DNA of 64,000 nucleotides from Candidatus Dormibacteria bacterium. GTDB taxonomy: Bacteria > Chloroflexota > Dormibacteria > Aeolococcales > Aeolococcaceae. Under the pieces are notes generated by a model, which was given only the letters and a program-made list of their open reading frames with translations, was not told where the DNA came from and searched no databases. The stretch's first letter is position 1, and every line of letters begins with the position of its first letter. Shown here piece after piece: positions 6,999 through 39,017 of the stretch. Position numbers and translations under genes: made by a program. The stretch covers positions 22,253-86,252 of the forward strand of contig JBEKIT010000002.1 in the NCBI GenBank assembly GCA_050011555.1, in the 5' to 3' direction.

Positions 6999-7009
6999 CC
7001 CCGGACCGC

Positions 7010-8035: not shown

Positions 8036-8036
8036 C

Positions 8037-9863: not shown

Positions 9864-12341
9864 TCAGACCACTGGCGGAAGCTGGAACCAGCCTGCCACG
9901 TCGACGATGGCGTCGATGCTGCCCTGGTTGTTGTAGAGGTCGACCTCCCCCGCGTTTCCCCCGGTGGCGGGGAGCTGGACGATCACGAGGTTGGGGGTGT
10001 TCTGCTGCGGGCTGACATTGAGGTCGCTCGCATTGGGGAGCGAGACGTTGGCCGGGTAGAGGGTGAAGTAGGTGAAAGCCGAGCCCGAAACCGCCGTGAC
10101 GTTGGCGATCACCGCCACCGGCGGGGTGGCGCCACCGTCCGCCGGAAGGCTGTCGACCCCTGCCACCGGGATGGTCAGGGTGCCACCCTGGGTGAGGGTC
10201 GCGTCCGAGCACTCGGTTGAGTAGTTCACCGCGAGCTCATCGCGGGTGTCGCAGATCCGGAGCGGGCTGACCGCATAGAACTCCGCGCCCTGGGTGCTCT
10301 CACTCCCGTTGCCGAACCAGCCGTTGACGTCGAGGATGAAGTTGATCGACCCCAGCGAGTTGTAGACGCAGACGTCGTTGGCCGGTCCCAGGGGCACGAT
10401 CACCCGGTTGGGGAGATTGGTCTGGGCGTTCACGTTGACGTTGGAGAACTGGGGCGTCCCGCTCGGGCAGGTGCCACCGGCTCCGGCAGGCTCCACCGCC
10501 ATGTAGGTGAGCGAGGTCCCCGAGACCGCGGTCAGGTTGAGGGCCACCGCCGCCGCGTCCGTGGCCGGCACCGATGGGGTGCAGGTGGGATCGCCGGTGG
10601 GGCAGCCGGAGACCACCACCCTTGTCCACTGGCCGGGGCCCAACGGGTTCCCGGAGCAGGCGGTGCCCGTCCCCGAGCGGCTGTCGCAGATCCGCAGCGG
10701 GGAGATGGGGTGGAAGAGCCCGGGGATCGACGAGGAGCCCGAGGGCGCGGCGAAGTATCCCTCGACGTCGACCGCGACGTTGATGGAGCCGAGCGAGTTG
10801 TAGATGCTCACCTGGCCGCCAGCTCCCAGGGCGACCACCACCAGGTTGGCCTGGTTGGTCGCCGCGTTGACGTTGATATTGGACGCGGTGGGCACGGCCG
10901 ATCCGGCCGGGAAAGCGGTCAGGAAGGTGCCCGCGGTGCCGCTGATGGCGGTGACGTTGAGGACCACCGACTGGGCGTCGCTAGGCACCGGCTCCGACCC
11001 GACCCCGGTCACCTGGAAGGTCATGGTCGCGCCCTGGCCGAGAGGCCCGTCCGACGAGCACTCCGTCGAGTACCCGGTCACCGCTGCGGTGCGCGTGTCG
11101 CAGATCCGGGAGGGTGAAAGAGCCGTGTACGCGGTCGCGACCGGCTGGTACGTCTGCTCGATCAGGGCCTGGCCCGAGTTCCAGTCCACCCCGACGGCGA
11201 TGCAGTCGGCGGCGGAGATGCAGGCGGGCTGGACCAGCTCGGCGTTATCGCTCGGGCTGGGGCTGTAGGCGAGGCTCCAACTCGTCCCGTTGTACTGCTC
11301 GATGAGCGTGAATTGCTCGTTGCTGCTGTCTAGGTAGTAGCCGACGGCCCAGCAGTCACTGGCTGAGGCGCACGTCACGCCGAAGTGGACGCCGTTGACG
11401 CTGCTGGGCGGGTTGGGGCTGGCGACGGTGCTCCAGCTCGACCCGCCGTACTGCTGGGTCAGGGTGAACCAGTAGCCGCTGCTGTCCGCATACTGGCCTA
11501 CCGCCCAGCAGTCGCTGGTCGACACGCAGGTCACGCCGAAGAGACCCGACTGGGCGCTGCCCGCCGGGCCGGGGTTGGTGGCGATGCTCCAGCTCGACCC
11601 CGTGTACTCCTCGGTGAGGGAGGTGGAGTTCCCGGAGTTGTCGGTGGAGTAGCCCACCGCCCAGCACTCGCTGGCCGAGGCGCAGGCCACGCCGTTGAGG
11701 ACGGAGTACGGGCTTCCCACCACGCTGAGGCTGGAGACGAGGTCCCAGGCGCTCCCCGTGTACTGCTCGGTCAGGGTGTAGGTCGTATCGTTGCTGTCCG
11801 CGTAGTTGCCGACGGCCCAGCAGTCGTCCGCCGAGAGACAGGTCACGGCCGCAAATTCGGAGTACGGCGCGCGCCCGGGTGCGGGGGCGGTCGAGACGAC
11901 GCTCCAGCTCGTGCCGTTGTACTGCTCGATGAGCGCGGACGGGTCCAACGCGCCTCCTGACAAACCCACCGCCCAGCAGTCGTCGACACCCACGCAGGAG
12001 ACCTGAGCCAGGTAGGCGCCGCCGCTGACGGCGGGGCTGCCGACGACGCTCCAGCTCGTGCCGTTGTACTGCTCGACCAGGGCGGTCGAGTCGAGGATTG
12101 ATCCCACGAACCCGACCGCCCAGCAGTCGTCGGCGTTGACGCAGGTGATCCCGGACAGGAAGGAGTTCGCGACCTGCGGGCTCGCGACCGTGGTCCAAAG
12201 GGTGGGTCCCACCGGCACAGCGCCTGCCTCCGCTCGCTGCGGACGTGCAAGGCTCAGTCCCGCCGAGGCCGCCGCGACGACGGCCGCCACGAGCAGCCCC
12301 CGGGTCAGCAGACCCCACCTTCGATTCTGTGTGATCGCCAC
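9864..12341 (-). CDS. Secreted repeat protein: signal peptide, about 9 'DCWAVG' ~50-aa repeats (putative beta-propeller), and a C-terminal triplicated GWFQ module (subfamily 1)
   Basis: GTG at 12341 is preceded by GGAGGA with a 6-nt spacer. Signal-like RRWGLLTRGLLVAAVVAAASAGLSLA. Repeats VTCxSxxDCWAVG...EQYNGTSWS. Three C-terminal repeats of about 130 aa (..SPLRICDTR..VLNVTAISGTAGTFLT..PTASNLN..GSINxxVDVxGWF). Ends ..VAGWFQLPPVV. Confidence 0.7.
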   Translation of the reverse strand: MAITQNRRWGLLTRGLLVAAVVAAASAGLSLARPQRAEAGAVPVGPTLWTTVASPQVANSFLSGITCVNADDCWAVGFVGSILDSTALVEQYNGTSWSVVGSPAVSGGAYLAQVSCVGVDDCWAVGLSGGALDPSALIEQYNGTSWSVVSTAPAPGRAPYSEFAAVTCLSADDCWAVGNYADSNDTTYTLTEQYTGSAWDLVSSLSVVGSPYSVLNGVACASASECWAVGYSTDNSGNSTSLTEEYTGSSWSIATNPGPAGSAQSGLFGVTCVSTSDCWAVGQYADSSGYWFTLTQQYGGSSWSTVASPNPPSSVNGVHFGVTCASASDCWAVGYYLDSSNEQFTLIEQYNGTSWSLAYSPSPSDNAELVQPACISAADCIAVGVDWNSGQALIEQTYQPVATAYTALSPSRICDTRTAAVTGYSTECSSDGPLGQGATMTFQVTGVGSEPVPSDAQSVVLNVTAISGTAGTFLTAFPAGSAVPTASNINVNAATNQANLVVVALGAGGQVSIYNSLGSINVAVDVEGYFAAPSGSSSIPGLFHPISPLRICDSRSGTGTACSGNPLGPGQWTRVVVSGCPTGDPTCTPSVPATDAAAVALNLTAVSGTSLTYMAVEPAGAGGTCPSGTPQFSNVNVNAQTNLPNRVIVPLGPANDVCVYNSLGSINFILDVNGWFGNGSESTQGAEFYAVSPLRICDTRDELAVNYSTECSDATLTQGGTLTIPVAGVDSLPADGGATPPVAVIANVTAVSGSAFTYFTLYPANVSLPNASDLNVSPQQNTPNLVIVQLPATGGNAGEVDLYNNQGSIDAIVDVAGWFQLPPVV

Positions 12342-18675: not shown

Positions 18676-18704
18676 CGTCTCCGTCGGTTGACATCACGGA
18701 GACG
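18676..18704. terminator. Inverted repeat (8-bp stem, 13-nt loop) downstream of the 15942-18602 gene. Candidate terminator or regulatory hairpin. The loop contains TTGACA.
   Basis: CGTCTCCG tcggttgacatca CGGAGACG. Confidence 0.25.
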
Positions 18705-18720
18705 TACGGGGCGTCCCCAT

Positions 18721-19752: not shown

Positions 19753-19783
19753 GCAGCGCAAGGCCGACTCCGCGAGACATACG

Positions 19784-21905: not shown

Positions 21906-24900
21906 ATGCTCGGTGACGGGCGTCGGCGGAAGCTAGGTATGCGGGGACACGGGGTGGTGGTCACGTTCGGGACGCGGGAGGGGGTCGACCAGCCCGGCGA
22001 TCGCCATCGGCGGGAGAGGGTGGGGCGGCCTCCCAGCCGGTCGATCCTCATCCTGATCGTCGGCGGTGCCGTGGTCGTCGGTTGCCTCGGTACCGGCGCG
22101 ATGGCGTCCGCCATCTCCGCGGCGGCGGCCTCCTCCTCGTGGGGCGGGGCCCCGGTGGGGCGCGGCACGGCTCAATTTGCCCGCGGTCGGGTCGAGACCC
22201 CTCGCGAGGTCCCGGACTCCGGGCCTGTGAGCGGCGCACGCGGCACCCCCTCCTCCGCGAGCGGTGACCTGGGCGGAGTCACATGCCTGAGCACCATCGA
22301 CTGCCAGGCAATGGGTGAACGCAACGACGGCCCCCTGATCGGGCAGGTGTACCAGCCGCCCGGGCCCTGGACACTGGCGGGCGGCGCGGAGGGCGGCTCA
22401 CTCTCCGGCGACACGTGCGCGGGTCCGGATGACTGCTGGGCGGTGGGCACCACCGCGAGCGGGTTGGGCACCCTGATCGAGCAGAACACCGGGGACGGCT
22501 GGGGTACGGTGACCAGCCCGAGCGAGGGCGGCGGCGGATACACCGAGTTGAGCGCGGTGACCTGTGTGAGTCCGAGCGACTGCTGGGCCGTCGGTGGCTA
22601 CGACAATGCCAACGGCGTGCCCGAGACCCTGATCGAGTGGTACCACGGCACGAGCTGGTCCATCGTGTACAGCCCGAATGAAGGAAGTGGCGACTGGCTC
22701 TTGGGGATCGCCTGCGCCGGGTCGGCGGAGTGTTGGGCGGTCGGCCAGTACGGCGACATCGAGATCGGCGAGGGGCAGCCTCTCCTCCTGGAATACAACG
22801 GGGCCGGCTGGTCTGGCCCAGCGTGGGAGCAGTATGGAAACACGCTGAATGCCATCACCTGCGTGAACGCGAGCGACTGCTGGGCGGCGGGCAACTACTT
22901 CGACGGCTCTGAGTACCAGACCCTGGTCTTCCAATACAACGGCACCGACTGGTCCCGGGGCACGAGCCCCGATGCAGGAAGCCCTGATCCGTCGGTGGTC
23001 TACAACTCTCTGAATGCGGTCGCCTGCAGCGGTGCCGACGACTGCTGGGCAGTCGGCCTGTACGACGAGCCGGGAGGGCTCTTCAACCAGACCCTCATCG
23101 AGCAGTTCGACGGCACAGGCTGGACCGTGGTCGGCAGCCCTGATCCCGGTGGGGCTGACATCCTGTACGGAGTGGCGTGCGCCAGCAGCACCGACTGCTG
23201 GGCGGTCGGCGAGTACTGGCCTGACCCGGCCATCACCGCCGACTATCAGACGCTGATCGAGGAGCTGACCGTCACCTCGTGGACCGCGGCCGCCAGCCCT
23301 GATGTGAGCAGCGCGGATGTCCTCGGCAACGTGGCATGCGATGGCAGCGTCAACTGTTGGGCGGTGGGCAGCTCGTTCAGCGGCAGCCAGACCGTGATCG
23401 AGCAGAGCGTGCAGGGGGATGCGCCGCCGATGGTGACGTCGCTCACCCCGGCGGCGGGGCCGGTGGGCGGCGGGCAGACGGTCACCGTCAACGGGTACGG
23501 CTTCGTGGCCGGGATGACCGTCACCCTGGGTGGCGTCGCGGTGACCCCCTCCAACGTCACCCCCGACAGCTTCATCTTCACCACCCCTTCGGCGAGCGCC
23601 GGCTACGTCACCCTCCAGGCCACCGACGGGTACGGCTCCAGCCTCGAGGACGGCAACGTGGGGTACATCTATGCCGCCCTCGCCGCGTATCACCCGCTCA
23701 CCCCGTTCCGCATCCTGGACACCCGTTCGTCCTCCTGCATCCAGTGCGGGACGGGAGCCCTGCTGCCATCGGGGACCACGACCCTGCAGGTGACCGGGTA
23801 CAGCTCGGGCGGGGAGTCGGTGCCGGCGGACGCGACCGCGGTGGCCCTCAACGTCACCGCGGTCTCCGGCTCGGCGGCCAGCTTCATCGGGGTCTACCCG
23901 GCCGGCACCGGCCGGCCCGACTCCTCCAACCTCAACTTCCTCGCCCAGACCAACACCGCCAACCTGGTGGTGGTGGCCCTCGGCCCCACCGGGGCCGTCG
24001 ACCTGTACAACAGCCTGGGCGCGGTGGACGTGGTCGCCGACGTCGAGGGGTACTTCACCGCCCCCTCGGGCACCCAGGGCCAGTTCCACCCGATCGCCCC
24101 GCTGCGGGTCTGCGACACCCGGCTGGGCCAGCCCGCCAACCCCTGCAACGAGGAGGGGACCGCGGATCTGGCGCTGGGCCCGGGCCAGGTGGCCAAGGTC
24201 GACGTGGCGGCGGTGACCAGCGCCCAGGGGGACATCCCCAGTGACGGCAGCGCCGAGGCGGCGGTGCTCAACCTGACCGCCGTCTCGGACACCCAGGCCA
24301 CCTACCTGAGCGTCTTCCCGAGCTCCTCCAACGGCACCTGCAGCACGGCGGTCCCCCAGAGCTCGACCCTCAACGTCAGCGCCCGGACCAACCAGGCCAA
24401 CCGGGTGATCGTGCCCCTGGGTCCGGCGACCAACGGGGGTCACGACACGGACGTCTGCGTGTACAACTCCCTGGGCAGCATCGACTTCCTCCTGGACGCC
24501 AATGGCTGGTTCGGGGCCAGCGGAGCGGCGGCCGGGACCGACTTCCAGGTGATCGGGCCCTCCCGGATCTGCGACACCCGGGCCGGGATGGGGACGGCGT
24601 GCAGCGGGGACTCGCTGACCCCCGGGGGCGTCCTGCCGGTGCAGGTGACCGGGATGGGCGGGGTGCCCTCCTCGGGGCCGGTGGCGGTGGTGGCCAACCT
24701 CACCGCGGTGTCAGGGACGTCGATGACCTACTTCACCCTCTACCCGGCGGGGGGCACCACCCCCAACGCCTCGGACCTGAACGTGGATGCCCAGCAGAAC
24801 CTCCCCAACCTGGCCATCACCGAGCTGGGCTCCGGGGGGACCCTCGACCTCTACAACTCCCTCGGCACCATCGACGCCGTCCTCGACGTCGAGGGCTGGT

Positions 24901-24908
24901 TCCAGTAG
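21906..24908 (+). CDS. Secreted or membrane-anchored protein: about 9 'DCWAVG' repeats (propeller), an IPT/TIG domain, and a C-terminal triplicated GWFQ module (subfamily 3)
   Basis: Hydrophobic N-terminus SILILIVGGAVVVGCLGTGAMASAISAAAA. Repeats VTCLSTIDCQAMG / TCAGPDDCWAVG / ..NGTSWS. IPT-like PMVTSLTPAAGPVGGGQTVTVNGYGF. Three repeats from YHPLTPFRILDTR. Ends ..VEGWFQ. The start at 21906 or 21939 is uncertain. The track start at 21645 overlaps the previous gene. Confidence 0.65.
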   Translation: MLGDGRRRKLGMRGHGVVVTFGTREGVDQPGDRHRRERVGRPPSRSILILIVGGAVVVGCLGTGAMASAISAAAASSSWGGAPVGRGTAQFARGRVETPREVPDSGPVSGARGTPSSASGDLGGVTCLSTIDCQAMGERNDGPLIGQVYQPPGPWTLAGGAEGGSLSGDTCAGPDDCWAVGTTASGLGTLIEQNTGDGWGTVTSPSEGGGGYTELSAVTCVSPSDCWAVGGYDNANGVPETLIEWYHGTSWSIVYSPNEGSGDWLLGIACAGSAECWAVGQYGDIEIGEGQPLLLEYNGAGWSGPAWEQYGNTLNAITCVNASDCWAAGNYFDGSEYQTLVFQYNGTDWSRGTSPDAGSPDPSVVYNSLNAVACSGADDCWAVGLYDEPGGLFNQTLIEQFDGTGWTVVGSPDPGGADILYGVACASSTDCWAVGEYWPDPAITADYQTLIEELTVTSWTAAASPDVSSADVLGNVACDGSVNCWAVGSSFSGSQTVIEQSVQGDAPPMVTSLTPAAGPVGGGQTVTVNGYGFVAGMTVTLGGVAVTPSNVTPDSFIFTTPSASAGYVTLQATDGYGSSLEDGNVGYIYAALAAYHPLTPFRILDTRSSSCIQCGTGALLPSGTTTLQVTGYSSGGESVPADATAVALNVTAVSGSAASFIGVYPAGTGRPDSSNLNFLAQTNTANLVVVALGPTGAVDLYNSLGAVDVVADVEGYFTAPSGTQGQFHPIAPLRVCDTRLGQPANPCNEEGTADLALGPGQVAKVDVAAVTSAQGDIPSDGSAEAAVLNLTAVSDTQATYLSVFPSSSNGTCSTAVPQSSTLNVSARTNQANRVIVPLGPATNGGHDTDVCVYNSLGSIDFLLDANGWFGASGAAAGTDFQVIGPSRICDTRAGMGTACSGDSLTPGGVLPVQVTGMGGVPSSGPVAVVANLTAVSGTSMTYFTLYPAGGTTPNASDLNVDAQQNLPNLAITELGSGGTLDLYNSLGTIDAVLDVEGWFQ

Positions 24909-25114: not shown

Positions 25115-28100
25115 ATGGGTCAGCAGGTGGCGACCGCGAGGTCGGACGGCTACAACAGTGTCGTCGACCGGTGGCGGGGAGGGTACCCCTGCCGCCCGCG
25201 ACGGTCCCGGACGGGTCTGGTGCGCGGGGCCGGGATCGCAGTGGTCCTGGCCAGCCTCACCTCCGGGTTGACATCACCCCAGCGGGTCACCGCCACTTCC
25301 ACGCCGGGGACGGCGTACACCGCGCTGCTGCCCTTCCGGGCCTGCGACACACGGCACGCAACGAGCACCGAGTGCTCCGGCACCACGTCGGACAGCCTCC
25401 TCGGCCAGGGCCAGAGCATGACCTTCCAGGTCACCGGGGTGGGGCCCTCGGGGGACCAGGTGCCCGCGGACGCCGAGTCGGTGGTGCTCAACGTCACCGC
25501 CATCAGCGGCACCGCCGGCACGTTCCTTACCGTCTTCCCGGGCGGCGCCTCCGTGCCCACCGCCTCCAACCTCAACGTCCCGGCCCAGACCAACCAGGCC
25601 AACCTGGTGGTGGTCGCTCTGGGCACCGGGGGTCAGGTCTCCATCTACAACTCGCTGGGCTCCATCAACGTCGCCGTCGACGTCGAGGGTTACTTCGCCG
25701 CTCCCGCGGGGTCCTCCTCGGTCCCCGGCCTCTTCCACCCCATCCCCCCGCTCCGGATCTGCGACACCCGGACCGGCACGGGTACCGCCTGCTCGACCAA
25801 GGGTCCCCTCGGTCCGGGCTACTGGACCAAGGTCGTGGTCTCCGGATGCCCCACCGGCAACCCCTCCTGCGGAGCCTCGGTGCCTGACGACGGGACAGCC
25901 GCGGCGGTGGCCCTCAACCTCACCGCCGTCTCCGGGACCTCCTCCACGTACCTGAGCGTGGTCCCCCCCAACGTCAGTGACAGCTGCCCCAGCGGCGCCC
26001 CGGCCTTCTCCAACCTCAACGTCAACGCCCAGACCAACCTCCCCAACCGGGTGATCGTCCCCCTGGGACCCGACCGGGACGTCTGCGTCTACAACTCCCT
26101 GGGCTCGATCAACTTCATCCTCGACCTCAACGGCTGGTTCGGTACCGGAGGCGAGGCCTCCCCGGGCGCCTACTACTGGGCGGTCACCCCCACCCGTATC
26201 TGCGACACGCGCAGCGCCGCCGCCACGGGCTACAGCACCGAGTGCTCCGGCAGCCCGGTCGGCCCCGCCCAGAGCCTCCCTGTCCAGGTGGCCGGCGTGG
26301 ATGGCATCCCCGCCGCCGGGGGGAGCACCGCGCCGGTGGCGGTGATCGCCAACGTCACGGCGGTGAGCGGCACCTCCTTCACCTACCTCACCCTCTATCC
26401 GGCGGACAGCGTCAGCGTGCCCAACGCCAGTGACCTCAACGTGAGCGCGTACCAGAACACCCCCAACCTCAGCATCGTCCAGCTGGCCGCCGGCGGCGCT
26501 CATCCGGGGGCCCTCGACCTCTTCAACGACCTGGGCACCATCAACGCCATCGTCGACGTCGCCGGGTGGTTCTCGTCCAAGCTCAAGCCGCAGGCCATCA
26601 CCTTCACCAGCTCGGCACCGAGCGATGCGGTGGTGGGCGGCGCGAGCTACACGCCCACGGCATCAGGTGGGGGGTCAGGCAACCCCGTCACTTTCAGCAT
26701 CGACCCCTCCTCGACCGCCGGCTGCGCCCTCTCCTCCGGGGCCGTCTCCTTCACCGCGGTCGGCACCTGCGTGGTCGACGCCAACCAGGCGGGCAACACC
26801 TACTACAGCGCCGCCGCGCAGGTCCAGCAGTCGTTCACGGTGGGGAAGAGGGCGCAGGTCATCAGCTTCACCAGCCCGGCACCCGCGGATGCGCTGGTGG
26901 GTGGTGCCACCTACACCCCAACGGCGACGGCCACCTCGGGCTTGCCCGTGGCCTTCACCATCGACGGGTCGAGCACCTCCGACTGCTCGATCTCCACTGG
27001 GATCGTCTCCTTCCCCGCCACGCCCGGTAGCTGCATCGTCGACGCCAACCAGCCGGGCGGCACCGACTACACCGCCGCCCCTCAAGCCCAGCAGACGTTC
27101 TCGGTCCGACTGACTCAAACCATCAGCTTCACCGCACCATCGAGCGGGACGGTGAAGGGCTCTGACGCCCTGACGCCCACAGCATCATCGGGTCTCACCG
27201 TCGCCCTGACCGTCGACGCCTCGACCACCAACGACGCCTGCTCGCTGAGCGGCGACACCGTGAGCTACCTCCACAGCGGCAGCTGCGTCCTCGACGCCAA
27301 CCAGGCGGGCGACGCCGACCACACCGCCGCCGCCCAAGTCCAGCAGACGATCGCGGTCGGCCAGGCCGCCCAGACGATTGCCTTCACCGCCCCGTCGAGC
27401 GGGATGGTCAATGGCTCCGACGTGCTCGCGCCGACGGCCTCCTCGGGGCTCGCCGTTACCCTCTCCGTCGACGCCTCGACCACCAATGACGCCTGCTCCC
27501 TGGACAGCGACACGGTCGACTACCTCCACACCGGCAGCTGCGTCCTCGATGCCGAGCAGGGGGGAAACATCGACTACAGCTCGGCCAACCAGGTCAAGCA
27601 GACGATTGCCGTGGGCCCGGCCACCCAGACGATCAGCTTCACCGCTCCGTCCAGCGGGACCATGACCGGCTCTGCCACGCTGGCGCCGACGGCATCATCG
27701 GGCCTCATTGTCACGCTGACCGTCGACACCTCGACGACCGACACCGCCTGTTCGCTGAATGGCGACACCGTCAACTACCTCCACACCGGTGACTGTGTCC
27801 TCGACGCCAACCAGGCCGGCGACGCGGACTACAACGCGGCCAGTCAGGTTCAGCAGACGATCACCGTGAGCGCGGCTCAGCTGGTGTTCACCACCGAGCC
27901 CGGTGGCGCCACCGCGGGTTCGCTCCTCAGCCCCCAGCCGGTGGTGACCATCGAGGACGTGCACGGCACCCCCATCACGACCGACATCGGCACGGTGACC
28001 CTGGCGATCACCTCGGGGACCGGAACCTCGGGAGCCCTCCTCGACGCGGGCTGCACCGCGACGACCGCGGCGGGCGTGGCCAGCTTCACCGGCTGCGAGA

Positions 28101-31100
28101 TCGACACGGCCGGCACGGGCTACACCCTCACGGCCACCTATGCCAGTGACGGCCTGACCGGCGCGAGCAGTGCCTTCGGCGTCGGCGCCGGCCCGGCCAG
28201 TCAGCTGGCGTTCACCACCCAGCCCGGCGGCGCCGCCGTGGGCTCACCCTTCATCGATCAGCCGGTGGTGACCATCGAGGACGGCTACGGCAACCCCGCC
28301 ACGAGCGACACCAGCACGGTGATCCTGGCGCTCACGCCAGGGACCGGACCCTCGGGCGCCGACCTCGTGGGCTGCAGCGGGACGACCGTGGCAGGTGTGG
28401 CCACCTTCTCGAGCTGCGAGATCGACACGGTCGGCACCGGCTACACGCTGACGGCCACCGACACCACTGACAGCCTGACCGCCACCAGCAGCAGCTTCCC
28501 TGTCTTCACCAGCTCGGACAGCGGAACCTCGAGCAGCTCCACAGGAACGGCGACGGCCACCACCGACAGCACCACGGCCAGCGCCATGGGGGTGGGGGCT
28601 CTCACCCTGGGCGAGTACGGGTCGGACCCGGTCGGCGCCCCGACCTTCTCCTCGGCGGGGGAGTACTTCGACGTGGCCCTCTCCCCAGGCAACTCATTCA
28701 CCACCGCGACCATCAACGACTGCAACCTGAACGGAGGCGGCACCATCGTGTGGTGGAATCCGGCAGCCTCCGGGGGCAGCGGAGCGTGGCAGCCGGTCTA
28801 CCCGGCACCGAGCTACACCGCCGGTCCTCCGGCGTGCGCTGCGGTGACCCTCACCAGCTCCTCGAGCCCGACGCTGGCGGAGTTGACCGGCACCGTCTTC
28901 GCCGCAGTCACCACGCCCACGCTGTCGTGGTCGCAGCCGCTTCCCATCGAGGGTACGCTGGTCAGCCTCACCTCCGTGTCCTGCCCCTCGGCCGACTTCT
29001 GCGCCGCCGTGGACAACCAGGGCAATGTGCTGACCTACAACGGCACCAGTTGGACCACGCCAACCAGTGAGGAGAGCAACGCCTTCAGCTCGGTGTCCTG
29101 CCCGTCGGATGACTTCTGCGTCGCCGTCGACGGCGGGAGCGGGGGGCACGCTGGAGTGGCGACCTTCAACGGCACTGGCTGGAGCACCTCGACCATCACC
29201 GATTCCGGCTTCCTCACCTCTGTGTCGTGCTTTTCGGCGTCCTTCTGCGCGGCGGTGGACGGCTACGGGAACGCCCTGACCTACGACGGCAGCACCTGGA
29301 CCGCCCCGGCCGATATCGACGGCACCTCGCCCCTCGTCTCAGTGTCCTGCCCCCTGGTGTCGTTCTGCATGGCCGTCGATGTGAGTGGCAATGCTTTCAC
29401 TTCCACCGGCGGCGATTCGTGGACGGCGTCCAGCGGCATCGTCAGCATTGGCAGCGTCAACTCGCTGTCGTGTGTCTCAGCGACCTATTGTATGGCGACC
29501 ACCGCCTACGACACCGGCGTCTACGGCGTGGGAACCAGCCAGGTCTTCAACTTCGATGGCAGCTCCTGGAGCGTGTCGACCACTATCAACGAGCCGGACC
29601 TCTGGACAATTTCCTGCGCGTCGACGACCGTCTGCATGGCGCTGGAATGGGACGGGTACACCCACGAGTTCAACGATGGCATCTGGAGCAGCTCGCCGAC
29701 CACGGTGGACATCGGTAGCGGCGCTCCCTCGGTCTCGTGTGCCTCAGCGTCCTTCTGCGCAGCCGTGGACAACATCGGTCGGGCGCTCACCTTCGACGGC
29801 AGCTCCTGGACATCGCTGAGCAACATCGATGGCATTGCCGCGGGTCTGAGCGCGGTGTCGTGTCCCTCGATGACATTCTGCGCCGCCACCGACTACGACG
29901 GGCGCGCTCTGACCTATAACGGCACCAAGTGGACCACGCCGACCCCCATCGACGGCGTGGGCGCGGGTCTCAGCTCGGTGTCGTGTGCATCCTCGTCATT
30001 CTGTTTGGCGGTGGATGCGGAAGGGAACGCGATTACCTTCAACGGCAGTGGCTGGGGCGCTCCGCAGAGCATTGGCAACGGTGCCGCGCTCAGTTCGGTG
30101 TCCTGCCCCACAGATCAGTTCTGCGCCGCCGCCGACGGTGGGGGTCCTGAGGGCAATATGCTGACCTGGGTTGGGAGTACCGGTAAGTGGAGCACCACCC
30201 CACTCAGCGGTACGGGCCCCTTCAGCTCGGTGTCGTGCCCCTCGGCTGACTTCTGCGTCGCCGTGGACGGTGGTGGTGGTGGTGGCGGCGGTGGTGGTGC
30301 GAACGTGGCGGTCTGGAACGGTACCACCTGGACCACCTCGCTCAACCCAGATCCCAACTGGCTCAGCTCGGTCTCATGTTCCTCGACGTCATTCTGCGCG
30401 GCGGTGGACGGCCTGCTCAGTGCCTTAACGTTCGACGGCAGCTCCTGGACCACCCCGGTCACCATCGACAGCACCGGTGGCCTCGAATCGGTTTCCTGTC
30501 CCGTGGATGAGTTCTGCGCCGCGGTGGACGGCTACGGTAACGTCCTGACCTTTGACAGCGGCACCTGGAGCACGAAGACCCCCGTCACCTCCTGGGGCCT
30601 GCAAACTGTCTCCTGCCCCTCTGTCTCCTTCTGCATGGCGCTCGATGGTGCCGGTGACGTCCTCTACGGCACGGCCAACGGCACGACTCAGATGATCAAC
30701 TTCAGCAGTCTGGCACCGACAGATGCGGTGGTTGGCGGCGCCACCTACACGCCGACGGCCACGGCGACGTCGGGTTTGCCGGTGATCCTCACCATCGATC
30801 CCTCGAGCAGCTCGGGCTGCGCGATTGCCGACGGGGTCATCTCCTTCCCGACCACGGCGGGCACCTGTGTCATCGACGCCAATCAGCCGGGGAACGCCGA
30901 CTACAGCGCGGCAGCCCAGGTTCAGCAGTCGTTCGAGGTGGGGAAGGAGTCGCAGACCATCAGCTTCACCAGCACGGCACCGACCGATGCGGTGGTCGGT
31001 GGTGCCACCTACACGCCAACCGCAACGGCCACGTCGGGCTTGGCAGTGACGGTCAGCCTGGATGGCACGTCGGTCGGATGCACCCTCTCCGCTGGGGTGG

Positions 31101-32146
31101 TGTCCTTCACGGCTGCGGGCACGTGTCTCCTCGATGCCAACCAGGCTGGCAACCTCAACTACAGCGCCGCGCCCCAGGTGCAGCAGCCAGTGACAGTGAT
31201 CGCAGGTTGGATGCAGTTGAGGCCCGCCACTTCTCCCTCGGCAAGAGCTGATGCATCGATCACAACCCTGACCGCCGGCCCCGACACCGGGGATGTGATG
31301 TTGTTCGGCGGTTCCGATGACAGGAGTGGCTACCTTGCCGACACCTGGGTCTTCAACGGTAGCACATGGACGCAACTCAGCCCTTCCACCTCGCCCCCTG
31401 GAAGACTTGGCGCATCGATGGCGACCTTGACCGCCGGCCCTGACGCCGGGGATGTGGTGTTGTTCGGCGGATGGGATTACAGCAGTGGCATCCTCGCAGA
31501 TACGTGGCTCTTCAACGGCAGCACCTGGACACAACTCAGCCCACCCACGTCACCTCTTGCGCGAGGTAAGGCCTCAATGACGACCTTGACCACGGGCCCT
31601 GACGCCGGGGATGTGGTGCTATTCGGCGGCTGCGACAACAGTGGGGGCTACCTCGGCGATACGTGGGTCTTCGACGGCAGCACCTGGACGCAACTCAGCC
31701 CACTCACCTCGCCCCCTGTGAGACAAGACGCGTCGATGGCAACCGTGAATGCCGGCCCCGACGCTGGCGACGTGATCCTGTCCGGCGGCTATGGTGACAC
31801 TGGGTACCTCTGGGACATCTGGGTCTTCAACGGCAGCACCTGGACGCAACTCAACTCACCCACCTCCTTCCCTGCGAGAACTGCGGCGTCAATGGCCGCC
31901 GTCAGTGCCGGCCCTGATGCCGGTGACGTGGTGCTGGTCGGCGGGTATGACAGTGGCTACCTCGGCGACACTTGGATCTTTGACGGCAGCACCTGGACGC
32001 AACTCAGCCCAGCCACCTCTCCCCCTGGCAGAGATCGGGCGTCGATGGCAACCTTGAACGCTGGCCCCGACGCCGGGGATGTGGTGTTGTTCGGCGGTTG
32101 GGGTGGTAGTGACTACGTTGGTGACACCTGGATTCTCGGCAACTGA
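25115..32146 (+). CDS. Giant secreted multi-repeat protein (2343 aa). N-terminal triplicated module (subfamily 1), then about 7 Ig-like two-Cys repeats of ~90 aa, 2 'QPVVTIED' repeats, a Ser/Thr linker, about 16 'SCPSxxFCxAVD' repeats, and about 6 Kelch-like repeats.
   Basis: Continuous ORF. The N-terminal TM/signal is ..GAGIAVVLASLTSG... The module triplet is in residues ~60-480 and ends ..VAGWFSSKLKP. All repeat classes are directly visible in the translation. Gly11 run at about residue 1720. Confidence 0.75.
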   Translation: MGQQVATARSDGYNSVVDRWRGGYPCRPRRSRTGLVRGAGIAVVLASLTSGLTSPQRVTATSTPGTAYTALLPFRACDTRHATSTECSGTTSDSLLGQGQSMTFQVTGVGPSGDQVPADAESVVLNVTAISGTAGTFLTVFPGGASVPTASNLNVPAQTNQANLVVVALGTGGQVSIYNSLGSINVAVDVEGYFAAPAGSSSVPGLFHPIPPLRICDTRTGTGTACSTKGPLGPGYWTKVVVSGCPTGNPSCGASVPDDGTAAAVALNLTAVSGTSSTYLSVVPPNVSDSCPSGAPAFSNLNVNAQTNLPNRVIVPLGPDRDVCVYNSLGSINFILDLNGWFGTGGEASPGAYYWAVTPTRICDTRSAAATGYSTECSGSPVGPAQSLPVQVAGVDGIPAAGGSTAPVAVIANVTAVSGTSFTYLTLYPADSVSVPNASDLNVSAYQNTPNLSIVQLAAGGAHPGALDLFNDLGTINAIVDVAGWFSSKLKPQAITFTSSAPSDAVVGGASYTPTASGGGSGNPVTFSIDPSSTAGCALSSGAVSFTAVGTCVVDANQAGNTYYSAAAQVQQSFTVGKRAQVISFTSPAPADALVGGATYTPTATATSGLPVAFTIDGSSTSDCSISTGIVSFPATPGSCIVDANQPGGTDYTAAPQAQQTFSVRLTQTISFTAPSSGTVKGSDALTPTASSGLTVALTVDASTTNDACSLSGDTVSYLHSGSCVLDANQAGDADHTAAAQVQQTIAVGQAAQTIAFTAPSSGMVNGSDVLAPTASSGLAVTLSVDASTTNDACSLDSDTVDYLHTGSCVLDAEQGGNIDYSSANQVKQTIAVGPATQTISFTAPSSGTMTGSATLAPTASSGLIVTLTVDTSTTDTACSLNGDTVNYLHTGDCVLDANQAGDADYNAASQVQQTITVSAAQLVFTTEPGGATAGSLLSPQPVVTIEDVHGTPITTDIGTVTLAITSGTGTSGALLDAGCTATTAAGVASFTGCEIDTAGTGYTLTATYASDGLTGASSAFGVGAGPASQLAFTTQPGGAAVGSPFIDQPVVTIEDGYGNPATSDTSTVILALTPGTGPSGADLVGCSGTTVAGVATFSSCEIDTVGTGYTLTATDTTDSLTATSSSFPVFTSSDSGTSSSSTGTATATTDSTTASAMGVGALTLGEYGSDPVGAPTFSSAGEYFDVALSPGNSFTTATINDCNLNGGGTIVWWNPAASGGSGAWQPVYPAPSYTAGPPACAAVTLTSSSSPTLAELTGTVFAAVTTPTLSWSQPLPIEGTLVSLTSVSCPSADFCAAVDNQGNVLTYNGTSWTTPTSEESNAFSSVSCPSDDFCVAVDGGSGGHAGVATFNGTGWSTSTITDSGFLTSVSCFSASFCAAVDGYGNALTYDGSTWTAPADIDGTSPLVSVSCPLVSFCMAVDVSGNAFTSTGGDSWTASSGIVSIGSVNSLSCVSATYCMATTAYDTGVYGVGTSQVFNFDGSSWSVSTTINEPDLWTISCASTTVCMALEWDGYTHEFNDGIWSSSPTTVDIGSGAPSVSCASASFCAAVDNIGRALTFDGSSWTSLSNIDGIAAGLSAVSCPSMTFCAATDYDGRALTYNGTKWTTPTPIDGVGAGLSSVSCASSSFCLAVDAEGNAITFNGSGWGAPQSIGNGAALSSVSCPTDQFCAAADGGGPEGNMLTWVGSTGKWSTTPLSGTGPFSSVSCPSADFCVAVDGGGGGGGGGGANVAVWNGTTWTTSLNPDPNWLSSVSCSSTSFCAAVDGLLSALTFDGSSWTTPVTIDSTGGLESVSCPVDEFCAAVDGYGNVLTFDSGTWSTKTPVTSWGLQTVSCPSVSFCMALDGAGDVLYGTANGTTQMINFSSLAPTDAVVGGATYTPTATATSGLPVILTIDPSSSSGCAIADGVISFPTTAGTCVIDANQPGNADYSAAAQVQQSFEVGKESQTISFTSTAPTDAVVGGATYTPTATATSGLAVTVSLDGTSVGCTLSAGVVSFTAAGTCLLDANQAGNLNYSAAPQVQQPVTVIAGWMQLRPATSPSARADASITTLTAGPDTGDVMLFGGSDDRSGYLADTWVFNGSTWTQLSPSTSPPGRLGASMATLTAGPDAGDVVLFGGWDYSSGILADTWLFNGSTWTQLSPPTSPLARGKASMTTLTTGPDAGDVVLFGGCDNSGGYLGDTWVFDGSTWTQLSPLTSPPVRQDASMATVNAGPDAGDVILSGGYGDTGYLWDIWVFNGSTWTQLNSPTSFPARTAASMAAVSAGPDAGDVVLVGGYDSGYLGDTWIFDGSTWTQLSPATSPPGRDRASMATLNAGPDAGDVVLFGGWGGSDYVGDTWILGN

Positions 32147-32285: not shown

Positions 32286-34079
32286 TCAGGCTGAGGACCT
32301 GGATGCACGCGCCTGATCGCGGCGGCGCGGGATCCGGAGCGTGAGCGGCCGCGGCCAGGCGACGTGCGGACCGAGGAAGGCGTCGCGCAACCGGTCCTCC
32401 GCGCCCCAGCGGAGGCAGAAGCGGCGGTAGTCGTCCTCGGGCGCGAGGCTCCCCCGGCTGGAACCCTCGTCGTGCTGGAGCTCGGCGAGCGGGGTCATCA
32501 CCACGCGCCATCCCGCCCGCCAGAGGCGGAGGCAGAAGTCGACGTCGTTGAAGGCCACGGGGAGGCTCTCGTCGAAGCCGCCGACCGCGTCCCAGGCCTC
32601 GCGGCGAACCATCATGCAGGCGCCGGTCACGGCGCTGCAGGCCCGCGCTGCCGACCAGCCGAGATCGAGGTTCGCGGCCACCCGGCCGATGCCGATGCCA
32701 ATGCCCTCGTGCTGTACTCGTCCGTCGGCGAAGACGAGTCGCGCCCCCACGGCGCCGACGCCGGGCCGCCCGCACCACTCGAGCATCGCCTCCAGCCACC
32801 CGGGGGTGCGCACCACGGTGTCGTTGTTGAGGAGGACGACGTAGGGGGTCTCGGTGGCCTCGACCCCCCGGTTGACGATGGCCGAGAAGTTGAAGTCACC
32901 CGGGTGGGGGACGACGTGCGGCAGCCGGCCCAGGTAGGCCAGGGTCCCCGGCTCGCGGCTGCCGTTGTCGACGATGACCACCCGACGGCGTGGGTGGGTG
33001 CTAGTCGCCACGCTCTCGAGGCAGCGGCGGAGCAGCTCATGCCGGTCCCGCGTGGGGATGACGATGGCGACCTCCGGGAGAGATCCGGGGTCGAACCGAA
33101 CATCGGTGACCCCGGGTTCCCGACCCGTCTCCACCCGGGCACCGGGATCGCGGGCGCGCAGCCAGGCCTCGAGGCACCGCCGCCGCACCGGCGCCGGCGC
33201 CTCGTGGGCGGAGCCCGCAGGTCGGGAGAGGGCCACCACCGGGAGGTGGCGCGGGTCGCGCAGGTGGGCCGATGCGCGCAGCAGCTCGGCATAGACCTCG
33301 GTGGGGGCGTCACTCTCGCTCCACCCCCCGGCGGCCTCCAGCAGGGCGGCCCGCTGGAGTACCAGGCCTCCCCCGACCTGGTCGCGACCCATGAGCAGCT
33401 CCGGTGACCAGCCGTAGGCCAGGTGCGGATGGTGGCGCCGGCCCCGGCCGTCCATGTCGTCCCAGTCGGTGTACGCGAGGTCGCAGTCAGGCGCCGCCCG
33501 GAGGGCCTCCGCCACCTCCACCAGGCCGTGGCGGGTCACCCGGCACCCGGGGGCGATCACGGCAACGAACTCCCCGGGCTCGGGCCGCGCCGCCTCCAGG
33601 AGGGGGGTCGCCCAGTGGGCGCCGGGCTGCCGTGGCGTCCAGCTGATGCGCGCGTCCTCGAGCGGCCCGGAGCCGTCCGGATCGGCCCAGGCCGCGGCGC
33701 GCCACCACGGGTAAGGCTGTGCCTGGAGGGAGAGCAGGGTCGCGCGGATCGCAGCCTGCTCACCGGGCGCGGAGGGGAGGAGGAGCACCACGGAGATGTG
33801 CGACTCCCAGGACTGGGCGGCGGCGGCCAGCCGGCGCAGCGCGCGGGCGTCCGGCTCTGTCCGGGCCCGCCAGCGGCGGTACTGGACCTCGAGGGGCACG
33901 CGGCTGGGGCCCGTCCCACGCCGTGGGGAAGGGCGCGACCGCCCCAGGCGGTCGAGCAGGTCGGCCGCCGCTTCTCGACGCCACAGGCTAAGCGCGCGGC
34001 GCATCCTGCCCGGCGCCGAGCGGGCCCCGCCGGGACGCTGGGGAGCGCTCACCGCACCCCGAGGCGTCGAGCCACCCAC
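32286..34079 (-). CDS. Two-domain GT2 family glycosyltransferase
   Basis: C-terminal GT2-A fold (VAIVIPTRDRHELLRRCLESV..VVIVDNGS..LLNNDT..) with DxD-like motifs. An N-terminal second GT2-like half. Overlaps the upstream gene by 31 nt. Confidence 0.7.
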   Translation of the reverse strand: MGGSTPRGAVSAPQRPGGARSAPGRMRRALSLWRREAAADLLDRLGRSRPSPRRGTGPSRVPLEVQYRRWRARTEPDARALRRLAAAAQSWESHISVVLLLPSAPGEQAAIRATLLSLQAQPYPWWRAAAWADPDGSGPLEDARISWTPRQPGAHWATPLLEAARPEPGEFVAVIAPGCRVTRHGLVEVAEALRAAPDCDLAYTDWDDMDGRGRRHHPHLAYGWSPELLMGRDQVGGGLVLQRAALLEAAGGWSESDAPTEVYAELLRASAHLRDPRHLPVVALSRPAGSAHEAPAPVRRRCLEAWLRARDPGARVETGREPGVTDVRFDPGSLPEVAIVIPTRDRHELLRRCLESVATSTHPRRRVVIVDNGSREPGTLAYLGRLPHVVPHPGDFNFSAIVNRGVEATETPYVVLLNNDTVVRTPGWLEAMLEWCGRPGVGAVGARLVFADGRVQHEGIGIGIGRVAANLDLGWSAARACSAVTGACMMVRREAWDAVGGFDESLPVAFNDVDFCLRLWRAGWRVVMTPLAELQHDEGSSRGSLAPEDDYRRFCLRWGAEDRLRDAFLGPHVAWPRPLTLRIPRRRDQARASRSSA

Positions 34080-35203
34080 GCGGCAGCTCGGCGTCCCCCC
34101 GGCACGCGACCGGTGAGGGCGCGCAAGCCCTCCATCCGGGCGTGCTCGCCGCGCAGCTGGTGCAGCAGCTCGTCACCGAGCGCGACGGCGGCCTGGAGTG
34201 CGCCGACCTGGACCCGCAACGCCTCGACCTCGGTGGGCGGCGCGGATGGCCTCGGGTCCGCGGCCTCGGGCTGGAGCGCCGGCAGCGGGCGGCGCTCGGC
34301 ACGGAGGATCGCGGCGGCCACCGCCGCGTCGCGGTCTCCGTCGGCCGGCGGCGGATCGAAGTCCCGCAGGGAGTCGCCCCACTTGGCGAGAAAGCGCCTG
34401 CCGCTGCGGACGGCCACCAGGGCTCGCAGGTCGTCGGGCAGGCTGGCGCCTCCGTGGTGAACGAGACGCGCGTTGGGCGCGTACAGGGTGCGGAACCCCC
34501 GGGCGCGGAGCGACAGGCAGAGGTCGACGTCCTCGAAGTAGGCGGGGAAGTACCTCTCGTCGAAGCCGCCGACCGCGCCCCACGCGTCGCGGGTGACCAG
34601 CAGGCCGCAGCCGGAGCAGTAGTCTGTTTGCCGGACACGGTTGTAGCTGTCTGACCCTGCGGGTAGCCCGTGGCCCACCTGATGGGTTCCCGCGTCTCGC
34701 CACAGGATGGATCCCGCCTCCTGGAGGCTCCCGTCGGGCGAGAGCAGCCGGCTGCCGACCGCTCCCGCCCGCGGCTCGCTCTCCGCCACCTCGACGAGGG
34801 CCCGCAGCCAGCCCGCCTCGACCTCGGTGTCGTCGTTGAGGAAGACCAGGTGACGGCCGCGCGCAAATCGGGCCCCCCAGTTGCACCCACCCGCGAAACC
34901 GAGGTTGACGGGTGAGGGGACGACGACCAGCGAGTCCAGGCCGGCCAGCGCGGCCAGGGTCTCCACCGGGGTGCCGTTGCCCACGACCACGACCTCGTGC
35001 GACGGCGCCTCGTGGAGCTTCGCCAGGGAGGCCAAGCAGGCGACGAGGCGATCGACGTCGGCCATCACCAGGATGACCACGGAGGCGATCGGGGAGTCGG
35101 CGACTCGCCTCCCCCGCCACACCAGGTCGGCGGCCGGTGAGGGCGGGGCCGGCCGGCCACCCGGGCGGACGCCGCCCGCCGCCACGCCCCGGGGCTCAGT
35201 CAT
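34049..35203 (-). CDS. GT2 family glycosyltransferase
   Basis: ..ASVVILVMADVDRLVACLASL..VVVVGNGTP..VFLNDDTEV..YFEDVDLCLS.. GT2 signature. ATG at 35203 lies 2 nt after the upstream stop (35196-35198). The longer frame to 35488 is rejected. Confidence 0.7.
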   Translation of the reverse strand: MTEPRGVAAGGVRPGGRPAPPSPAADLVWRGRRVADSPIASVVILVMADVDRLVACLASLAKLHEAPSHEVVVVGNGTPVETLAALAGLDSLVVVPSPVNLGFAGGCNWGARFARGRHLVFLNDDTEVEAGWLRALVEVAESEPRAGAVGSRLLSPDGSLQEAGSILWRDAGTHQVGHGLPAGSDSYNRVRQTDYCSGCGLLVTRDAWGAVGGFDERYFPAYFEDVDLCLSLRARGFRTLYAPNARLVHHGGASLPDDLRALVAVRSGRRFLAKWGDSLRDFDPPPADGDRDAAVAAAILRAERRPLPALQPEAADPRPSAPPTEVEALRVQVGALQAAVALGDELLHQLRGEHARMEGLRALTGRVPGGRRAAAWVARRLGVR

Positions 35204-39008: not shown

Positions 39009-39017
39009 CTCATCGGC

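Follow-up and report, generated by a model that had tools for sequence, protein, structure and literature searches.

An unnamed cysteine-pair repeat predicted to form seven-bladed beta-propellers in three probably exported proteins of a Candidatus Dormibacteria bacterium

The window considered here is a stretch of 64,000 nucleotides from a Candidatus Dormibacteria bacterium (GenBank assembly GCA_050011555.1, contig JBEKIT010000002.1, positions 22,253 to 86,252 of the forward strand), and all coordinates below are counted from its first letter. Three of its genes, called p1, p2 and p3, encode proteins with arrays of a short repeat marked by a conserved pair of cysteines (Table 1). Translation and a motif scan place these arrays in the genes, and on the strands, in which a preliminary description of the DNA had reported them. 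The unit occurs in two forms. The long form, in p1 and its paralogue p2 (40% identity between the two propeller regions), has about 51 residues and reads L-x-G-V-T-C-x-S-A-x-D-C-W-A-V-G, a variable loop, Q-T-L-I-E-[RHQ]-[WY]-[DN]-G-[TS]-S-W-[SAT]-[IV]-V-x-S-P-N and a variable connector. The short form, in p3, has about 40 residues and reads L-x-S-V-S-C-x-S-x-x-F-C-x-A-V-D-x-x-G-x-A-x-T-[YWF]-[ND]-G-x-x-W-S-x-P-x-x-I-D. An hhalign comparison (99.7%, E 2e-26) shows that these forms are homologous and in register with each other; their chief difference is the loop joining strand B to strand C, which has 9–14 residues in the long form and about 4 in the short one. According to structural modelling, the long-form unit very probably forms a single four-stranded blade, and seven such blades close into a beta-propeller. 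From its sequence, the repeat is placed in the propeller clan as a branch without a name, nearest to bacterial Kelch-type repeats; it is not BNR, and it is not demonstrably Kelch.

Units were counted by scanning translated open reading frames (ORFs) for the pattern C-x(4-6)-C and with hidden Markov models (HMMs) of the unit. The p1 ORF has eight C-x5-C pairs (residues 214, 258, 307, 357, 406, 461, 512 and 565), spanning residues 214–577 with a period of 44–55 residues. An HMM built solely from the seven p2 units finds seven p1 units (per-unit E 1e-17 to 1.5e-3), and the first copy (residue 214, CLSTIDCQAMG), which does not match the unit HMM, is degenerate. The seven units of p2 occupy residues 148–479 with a period of 49–52 residues (first cysteines at 148, 197, 249, 301, 353, 405 and 455), and p3 carries the SVSCPSxxFCxAVD variant in 14 units over residues 1290–1846, with a period of 39–48 residues and 14 unit HMM matches (E 1e-19 to 5e-12). 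The copy numbers first proposed, about nine, nine and 16, were therefore too high: there are seven plus one degenerate copy in p1, seven in p2 and 14 in p3. The spacing of four or five residues given for the cysteines also has to be amended, since it is five residues in 97% of 3,401 regular-expression motif matches across homologues.

Long spurious ORFs are frequent on both strands of the window, and the periodicity could be seen as a compositional or chance artefact of a genome with 70% G+C, or as the product of a wrong reading frame. However, per-unit HMM E-values go down to 1e-27, thousands of homologues share the same period, and the folds are predicted with confidence. When the window is scanned in all six frames, matches to the two unit HMMs are confined to the p1, p2 and p3 ORFs, and the overlapping ORFs in other frames or on the opposite strand of the repeat regions have no Pfam match. 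An artefact of this kind is already refuted by these results, and its probability is negligible. The DNA of the blades has for the most part diverged: Tandem Repeats Finder detects only 1.8 DNA-level copies at 11340–11620, in p2, and the p1 blades are not DNA-level repeats, so the period is kept at the protein level and does not reflect recent duplication; recent amplification of the p1 blades was considered and is ruled out on the same grounds. The p3 gene has DNA-level tandem repeats in other domains: one at 27024–27862(+) (255 bp, 3.3 copies, 76% matches) in its Ig-like domains and one at 31249–32102(+) (159 bp, 5.4 copies, 74% matches) in its Kelch blades. In contrast to the Cys-repeat blades, both seem to have been amplified or homogenised in recent times.

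The repeat region of p1 was modelled with AlphaFold2 from the segment 22122–23435 and an alignment of 68 sequences (model m76ca99ced1a2; a query of 438 residues, about 70 of them disordered). The model has a predicted local distance difference test score (pLDDT) of 83 and a predicted template modelling score (pTM) of 0.80, with pLDDT above 85 over residues 75–430, and its 27 strands make up seven four-stranded blades. The last blade itself gives three strands and is completed by an N-terminal strand, PWTL (22368–22379; E83-85 in the model). The degenerate unit 0 is disordered in the model (pLDDT below 50) except for this strand, which is the only part of it that is used. The consensus of the 68 sequences starts with WSIVxSPN, a D strand, and ends with QTLIExY, a C strand, in agreement with closure of the ring by an N-terminal strand; the last unit of p2 likewise ends after strand C (ALIEQTY). 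Exactly seven units are present in 86 of 120 long-form homologues, and 14 units in 77 of 120 short-form homologues. The model of the 14 p3 units (m016c27591c97; pLDDT 89, pTM 0.82) is best matched by two tandem seven-bladed propellers. The earlier suggestion of a beta-propeller repeat used three times in this island is thus upheld by the models, with seven blades predicted for the long form and a tandem double seven-bladed arrangement matched by the short one.

In each predicted blade, L-x-G-V-T-C forms strand A (the innermost), C-W-A-V-G strand B, T-L-I-E-x-[WY] strand C and W-S-x-V strand D. The first cysteine (C1) is near the end of strand A and the second (C2) at the start of strand B; the tight A-B turn between them bears the S-x-x-D motif, [DN]-G-x-x-W is the C-D hairpin, and S-P-N follows strand D. 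The variable B-C loop is rich in Tyr, Ser, Asp, Asn and Gly. The bottom face of a propeller holds the A-B and C-D turns, and its top face the B-C loops and D-A connectors (PMC8916777). By this standard geometry, both conserved signatures of the repeat would be at the hub or bottom face, with its variable segments on top. The N-G-T of YNGTSW was also considered as a glycosylation sequon and rejected, its Asn being just 34% conserved in the family (Asp 38%).

All Foldseek matches of the p1 and p3 models are propellers. The best solved match of p1 is CylK (PDB 7fh6 and 7ron; E 2e-11, template modelling (TM) score 0.56–0.57 when normalised by the 438-residue query, 12% identity), and Ycf48 is matched with a TM score of 0.65–0.68 when normalised by target length (11–12% identity). 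Other matches include GH74 xyloglucanases, WDR91 and BT3686, all solved matches having 9–16% identity, and a viral structure library returns generic propellers, including a phage 'BNR repeat-like' protein. The best matches of p3 are double seven-bladed propellers: 2ymu (E 2e-22), Aip1, Utp21, Gemin5 and GH74. With enzymes such as CylK, the GH74 xyloglucanases and BT3686 among the best matches, the propeller might itself be an enzyme with a top-face active site, either a glycoside hydrolase or lyase of the GH74 or sialidase Asp-box type or an alkyl-transfer enzyme or lyase like CylK or Vgb. Other proteins of the island have hydrolase heads or domains (an S53 peptidase, an Rv2525c-like domain and a CHAP protein), and some short-form homologues are fused to GH18. 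The conservation pattern argues against this possibility: the columns conserved at 50% or more across the 68 sequences (30–45% identity) all belong to the repeat core, the B-C and D-A loops score 10–30%, and no blade-specific conserved residue is found, top-face loops included. The blades are near-identical, unlike those of catalytic Asp-box propellers, which are 'characteristically irregular' (PMC2716378), the identity to the matched enzymes is just 9–16%, and a fusion to a chitinase suits an accessory binding domain better than a second catalytic one. An enzymatic propeller is, on balance, improbable.

The claim that the repeat belongs to no named family stands: no Pfam-A or NCBIfam model matches it in the window proteins, and the 68-sequence alignment, used as a profile against PDB sequences, gives no meaningful match. 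BNR, PSII_BNR, Sortilin, Kelch and WD40 Pfam models have no match among the 124 homologues scanned (for BNR at E<=0.01). In the window proteins, BNR (PF02012) has no match at E<=1, and PSII_BNR (PF14870) and WD40 none; the GH...WD signature of WD40 is absent from the consensus. Pfam Kelch models (PF01344, PF13418 and related ones) match p3 at residues 2057–2328 only, and not the Cys repeats. DUF6087 (PF19565) reaches only E 0.085 in p2, below the cut-off, and matches to DUF2510 (PF10708) and DUF6087 in homologues are sums of partial matches of 18–28 residues to LIExWDGxxW, none of which passes alone. Nothing relevant was found in the literature on the CWAVG motif or on propellers of Dormibacterota.

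The repeat could nevertheless be a divergent member of a named family (Kelch, or the BNR/Asp-box/Ycf48-like group) missed by current HMMs. The preliminary description had compared the NGTSW segment with the BNR/Asp-box. The canonical Asp-box, x-x-(S/t)-x-(D/n)-x-G-x-(T/s)-(W/f/y), always has D or N at position 5 and an aromatic residue at position 10, and both Asp-boxes and s-Asp-boxes are invariably found between strands 3 and 4 (PMC2716378). The [DN]-G-x-x-W hairpin also lies between strands 3 and 4, the same place as the Asp-box, but when G and W are aligned the repeat fails the consensus: position 5 is W (70%) or Y (16%) in the long form and Y, W or F (90%) in the short form, and position 3 is occupied by Glu (long form) or by Leu, Val or Phe (short form). 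The s-Asp-box (S/t-x-D/n-x-x-x-W/f/y) is approached in part, by the short form with T at 53%, N or D at 78% and W at 99%, and by the long form with R, H or Q in first position, D or N at 72% and W at 99%, so that the spacing fits and the first position does so only partly. The comparison with BNR is therefore sound as regards topological position and s-Asp-box spacing, and not as regards the canonical consensus; Kelch is closer than BNR. Among the Asp-box propellers (Ycf48/HCF136, GH74, sialidases and sortilin), seven-bladed ones such as Ycf48 rank with the best Foldseek matches, and the position of the hairpin and the D/N-to-W spacing of the s-Asp-box are shared with the Cys repeat. They are characteristically irregular, the motif often lacking in several blades, and they bind ligand through the variable 2-3 loop on the top face (PMC2716378), whereas the Cys repeat is highly regular, has its motif in every blade, is only 10–16% identical to them and has an aromatic residue at position 5.

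The likeness to Kelch is seen within p3, the C-terminal Kelch domain of which aligns with the long-form profile at 94.7% (hhalign, E 6e-8, 255 columns, five blades in register). At the level of a single unit the value is 77.6%, and 55% for the short form, against 0.06% for a control, the PQQ-type propeller of a neighbouring gene; the Kelch template is a single repetitive sequence, which may inflate these scores. In the alignment, CWAVG corresponds to VLFGG, and LIEQYNGTSWSVVxSP to TWVFNGSTWTQLSP. Kelch repeats are defined by four hydrophobic residues and a GG doublet, followed by a conserved aromatic residue and a Trp. The Cys repeat has C-W-A-V-G, in which a single Gly is invariant (100%) and the residue after it varies, and then the strand C aromatic and the strand D Trp (99%). 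It shares with Kelch (Kelch_1-6, bacterial Kelch_4 type) blades of about 50 residues with four strands, a hydrophobic strand B ending in Gly, the strand C aromatic, and a common hairpin and tail, [FYW]-[ND]-G-x-x-W-x-x-[LV]-x-S-P. It differs in having a single Gly instead of GG, the C-x5-C pair, a strand C Glu and S-P-N, and in its strict count of seven blades, or 14 in the short form. The hhalign values, the presence of Ycf48, GH74 and the phage 'BNR repeat-like' protein among the best fold matches, and a hairpin with the position and spacing of the s-Asp-box all speak for a divergent member of a named family. Against it stand the lack of any Kelch, BNR, PSII_BNR, Sortilin or WD40 match among 124 members, the single Gly in place of the doublet, an Asp-box position 5 that is not D or N, possible score inflation by the repetitive template, and a Cys pair and S-P-N matched by none of the Pfam and NCBIfam models searched. 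Membership of a named family seems unlikely, though it deserves some weight, and an unnamed branch near Kelch is preferred.

The family is 'new' in the sense of being unnamed and undescribed; it is neither rare nor a new fold. A word-index search gives more than 3,094 matches for the long form and more than 6,183 for the short form, and an exhaustive profile search gives 58,284 clusters (at 50% identity) with E<=1e-3, 41,703 with E<=1e-10 and 21,784 with E<=1e-30. Nearly all source names given are 'hypothetical protein'. The genome loci with the long form, found with a single p2 domain as query, are all in metagenome-assembled genomes (MAGs) and belong to Dormibacterota, Chthoniobacterales/Verrucomicrobiota, Acidimicrobiaceae, Solirubrobacterales, Streptosporangiaceae and one Thermoplasmatota bin; short-form matches include a cultured actinomycete, Flexivirga alba. 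The nearest relatives are Dormibacteria (propeller 52% identical, C-terminal module described below up to 95%). Several genomes have three or four paralogues, with four loci each in MAG MFD01275.bin.2.204 and MAG clean1604. The Thermoplasmatota archaeon MAG (JBAZZN01) has two long-form propeller loci with 40–41% identity (L005 and L009), either through horizontal transfer or through contamination during binning.

The cysteines of the repeat are lost or kept together. Across 388 family proteins with HMM-defined units, 2615 units have both cysteines, 441 have neither, one has only the first and one only the second. Among the first 120 long-form homologues, 106 proteins have both cysteines in all units and 13 have none. 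Both cysteines are present in 90% of long-form units, and about 10–15% of the homologues examined lack both; in Cys-less units, C1 is replaced by Ala or Val and C2 by Val, Ile or Leu. The Cys-less homologues often have one Cys immediately before the N-terminal closing strand (C-G-x-W-S-V-V) and another immediately after the last C strand (E-x-Y-C): with a crude pattern match, the N-terminal Cys is found in 16 of 40 Cys-less proteins, the C-terminal one in 16 of 40 and both in 8 of 40, whereas both occur in 0 of 234 proteins of the Cys-rich class. In P0047, P0091 and P0357 these are the only two cysteines of the protein, which suggests that a single disulfide may lock the ring closure in the Cys-less homologues. 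Such a terminal pair agrees with the closure model and with a stabilising role for disulfides. Terminal cysteines are also seen in other Cys-less long-repeat homologues (P0068, P0114, P0288 and P0350).

The N-termini of p1, p2 and p3 read as signal peptides, and the three proteins are very likely exported. Arginine pairs (RR) are present in the N-termini of p2 and p3, and a Tat signal was considered. In p1, the ATG at 21906 given earlier as the start is still possible, but GTG 22020 is likelier: it follows a Shine-Dalgarno-like site, GGGAGAGG, and opens directly into GRPPSRSILILIVGGAVVVGCLGTGAMASA, a predicted signal peptide. The gene upstream ends at 21868. The likely start of p2 is similarly a GTG, at 12341, with an AGGAGG Shine-Dalgarno-like site, opening into a signal-peptide-like sequence. 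From the all-or-none co-occurrence of the cysteines together with the export signals, it is very likely that the Cys pairs form disulfides.

Table 1. Features of the island encoding the Cys-repeat proteins and of its flanks (positions in the 64,000-nucleotide window).
Feature	Coordinates	Strand	Basis and remarks
p1 gene	22020..24908	+	Translation; ORF open from 21645; ATG 21906 an alternative possible start; order: signal peptide, degenerate unit, seven-bladed Cys-repeat propeller, TIG, three C-terminal modules
p1 predicted signal peptide	22020..22112	+	Basic N-region, hydrophobic core, A-S-A site; read from the sequence directly
p1 degenerate unit 0	22269..22385	+	LGGVTCLSTIDCQAMG...PWTLAGG
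p1 predicted seven-bladed propeller	22368..23408	+	Unit HMM matches, AlphaFold2 model, Foldseek
p1 units 1-4 (approximate)	22401-22535, 22545-22679, 22698-22814, 22845-22976	+	
p1 units 5-7 (approximate)	23010-23153, 23163-23312, 23322-23408	+	
p1 IPT/TIG (Ig-like) spacer domain	23427..23627	+	Pfam PF01833, E 2.6e-10, residues 595-661
p1 triple C-terminal module	23688..24902	+	Module HMM; about 125 residues per copy
p2 gene, paralogue of p1	9864..12341	-	ORF open to 12584; order: signal peptide, seven-bladed Cys-repeat propeller, three C-terminal modules with no spacer between
p2 predicted seven-bladed propeller	11148..12200	-	N-terminal closing strand LWTTVASP, then seven units
p2 triple C-terminal module	9885..11129	-	Module HMM
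p3 gene (giant protein)	25115..32146	+	2343 residues; order: signal peptide, triple module, Ig-like repeats, two tandem Cys-repeat propellers, Ig-like domains, Kelch propeller
p3 triple module	25316-26572	+	Module HMM
p3 fourteen short-form units, about 40 residues each	28967..30697	+	SVSCxSxxFCxAVD..G.A.TYNG..WS.P; unit HMM; AlphaFold2
p3 C-terminal Kelch-type propeller	31283..32098	+	Pfam Kelch families, E 1e-30 to 1e-7; residues 2057-2328
Module-bearing ORF	12635-15925	+	Module HMM; triple module about 14702-15922
Module-bearing ORF	15942-18602	+	Module HMM; triple module about 17379-18599
Module-bearing ORF	19727-21868	+	Module HMM; triple module about 20630-21865
Module-bearing ORF	40296-43598	-	Module HMM; triple module about 40305-41531
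rmlD, rmlB, rmlC, rmlA (complete operon for dTDP-L-rhamnose synthesis)	6129..9679	-	Directly downstream of p2; Pfam RmlD_sub_bind, GDP_Man_Dehyd/Epimerase, dTDP_sugar_isom, NTP_transferase
GT2 glycosyltransferases, WsaF-like (rhamnosyl)transferase fusion, methyltransferase	32286..40133	-	Directly downstream of p3

The three proteins share with four others in the window a module of about 125 residues (ICDTR..C...LNxTAVSGT...P..SNLN...N..IV...YNSLGSID..DV.GWF), which is present in exactly three copies in each of the seven ORFs. It is C-terminal in six proteins and N-terminal in the giant p3. Its heads comprise the Cys propeller, a PQQ-type propeller, an Rv2525c-like glycosidase domain, a pro-kumamolisin/S53 peptidase and one without assignment; in at least three proteins (p1 and the ORFs at 12635 and 40296), head and module are separated by a TIG domain. 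The unassigned head, at residues ~100–590 of the protein encoded at 12635 (about 500 residues), has no Pfam match and is an unannotated extracellular domain. The triple module has no Pfam, NCBIfam or PDB match either, CWB2 and SLH included. More than 923 homologues of it were found, largely confined to Ca. Dormibacteria and also joined to G1 and S8 peptidase, PKD and TIG heads. The combination of propeller and triple module recurs at three loci (L001, L002 and L027), and a module gene is again paired with rmlABCD on a relative's contig (L083). From this distribution, the module looks like a lineage-specific device for surface anchoring. A CHAP-domain protein (18688–19752(+)) and the Rv2525c-like glycoside-hydrolase-like protein (at 19727), the second with a triple module, lie directly upstream of p1, which indicates that cell-wall-active enzymes are encoded in the same island. 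The fusion protein in the glycosyltransferase block has 1270 residues and combines GT2, WsaF-like and GT1 parts. Farther along the window (48736–51159(+)), a SufB/SufD-type Fe-S assembly protein is broken by an intein with a LAGLIDADG homing-endonuclease domain.

The rhamnose, GT2 and WsaF-like genes that flank the island presumably resemble S-layer or cell-wall rhamnan glycan loci. With such flanks, the propeller could be a purely structural part of the envelope (an S-layer-like lattice or a rigid spacer) that binds no ligand, its loops varying by drift or through antigenic or phage evasion. SLH domains in some homologues, the great abundance of the family and disulfide rivets, which suggest selection for robustness, are compatible with such a role. 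However, the same head occurs with very different anchors in other phyla (dockerin, SLH, triple module), as is typical of a portable functional module, and several paralogues per genome with variable loops are better suited to differing specificities. A structural role without a ligand seems rather improbable.

The preferred explanation is that the propeller serves as a surface binding head. Partner domains in homologues (dockerin, SLH, CHB_HEX_C, Ig-like, TIG, fn3, GH18 chitinase, CBM5/12 and tectonin) are extracellular and carbohydrate-related, and thus support both export and a role in binding. The Cys pair of the A-B turn and the [DN]GxxW hairpin of the C-D turn would act as structural rivets on the bottom face or hub, most likely with disulfides in the case of the cysteines, because the proteins are exported. 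The variable top face, made of B-C loops and D-A connectors, would be the ligand-binding surface that gives specificity, so that the propeller would bind without catalysis, its ligand being most likely a glycan or some other polymer and less likely a protein. Such a binding head would be displayed outside the cell by the TIG spacer and the triple module in p1, and by the module directly in p2, and the triple module would hold the proteins on the envelope, perhaps on a rhamnose-containing glycan encoded next door. Confidence in the explanation as a whole, from blade units and rivets to the variable top face and the anchored binding head, is moderate, and the binding function itself is put forward tentatively.

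Several points weigh against this explanation. The notion of a binding head is argued in part from the finding that no catalytic constellation is conserved, anchoring by the triple module is deduced purely from the distribution of that module, and no conserved operon is seen around the genes of two homologues. The structures are predicted ones, and p1 could have eight blades if unit 0 folds, as there is no depth of homologue alignment there. The models also suggest that the simple picture of one hairpin staple per blade may be wrong. In 20 of the 21 modelled blades, DSSP gives a turn of two residues, C1 lying two positions upstream and C2 two positions downstream of it, so that the two cysteines of a blade would be diagonal rather than directly opposite, as far as DSSP strand boundaries show. 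A strained diagonal disulfide, an inter-blade disulfide (C1 to the C2 of the neighbour) and imprecise DSSP boundaries are all possible. The proposal of one disulfide per blade thus gains from the all-or-none co-occurrence of the cysteines, and loses from the diagonal register of the models and from the Cys-less minority of homologues.

In the inter-blade arrangement, the strand A cysteine of each blade would bond the strand B cysteine of its neighbour, and seven such disulfides would lock the ring. The cysteines of 20 of the 21 modelled blades, offset by one residue and with side chains expected on opposite faces of the blade, are compatible with this arrangement, as are the existence of proteins with either all or none of the cysteines and the Cys pair at the ring-closure point of Cys-less relatives, seen in 0 of 234 Cys-rich proteins. 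Single-Cys units, just two of about 3,100, are too few to tell intra-blade from inter-blade pairing. A disulfide-locked ring of this kind is rather unlikely; if it existed, together with hypervariable top loops and many paralogues, it would amount to an unrecognised scaffold for binding in soil bacteria, ultra-stable and evolvable.

The family defined by the repeat is very large, has no name, no Pfam or NCBIfam model and no solved relative, and is centred in uncultured lineages of soil and peat, with concentrations in Dormibacterota, Acidimicrobiia, Solirubrobacterales, Chthoniobacterales and several actinomycete orders. A family model would annotate tens of thousands of exported proteins now called 'hypothetical'. 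The two apparent routes to stabilising one propeller, a Cys pair in each blade or one at the ring closure, bear on folding and design. Together with the triple module, the repeat sketches a modular cell-surface proteome for the Dormibacteria, the envelope biology of which is otherwise essentially obscure. The fold is classical, no new mechanism is revealed, and the function is inferred.

Several known systems resemble parts of this arrangement. The three-module architecture is, we assume, analogous to the three CWB2 modules of Clostridioides difficile Cwp proteins or to triple SLH domains: in both cases three copies of one module are joined to differing heads and encoded beside envelope-glycan genes, but the island module has no detectable similarity to CWB2 or SLH, and its binding to the wall is a prediction only. 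Among propellers of similar shape, p3 resembles 2ymu, a 14-repeat 'highly repetitive propeller' that we take to be of the WD40 type, and Aip1, in that 14 near-identical repeats form two seven-bladed rings (E 2e-22 to 3e-18); Aip1 is a WD40 protein, the Cys pair is absent from these propellers, and identity is 12–13%. GH74 enzymes share the tandem pair of seven-bladed propellers with p3. CylK also has a regular seven-bladed propeller at its C-terminus, with unusually long internal (B-C) loops (PMC8916777). It differs in being a cytoplasmic biosynthetic enzyme with an N-terminal Ca-binding beta-roll and blade-bridging Ca sites, none of which is evident in the Cys-repeat proteins. For the cysteines, the comparison is with PfCyRPA, the cysteine-rich protective antigen of Plasmodium, which has one disulfide inside each of five blades and an unstapled closing blade (PMC5349852). 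This eukaryotic protein has six blades of a sialidase-type fold without a sequence repeat, and its disulfides were mapped experimentally, whereas those of the Cys repeat are inferred, but both are, or in the case of the Cys repeat probably are, extracellular and non-enzymatic propellers, with blades that are stabilised, or appear to be stabilised, by disulfides.

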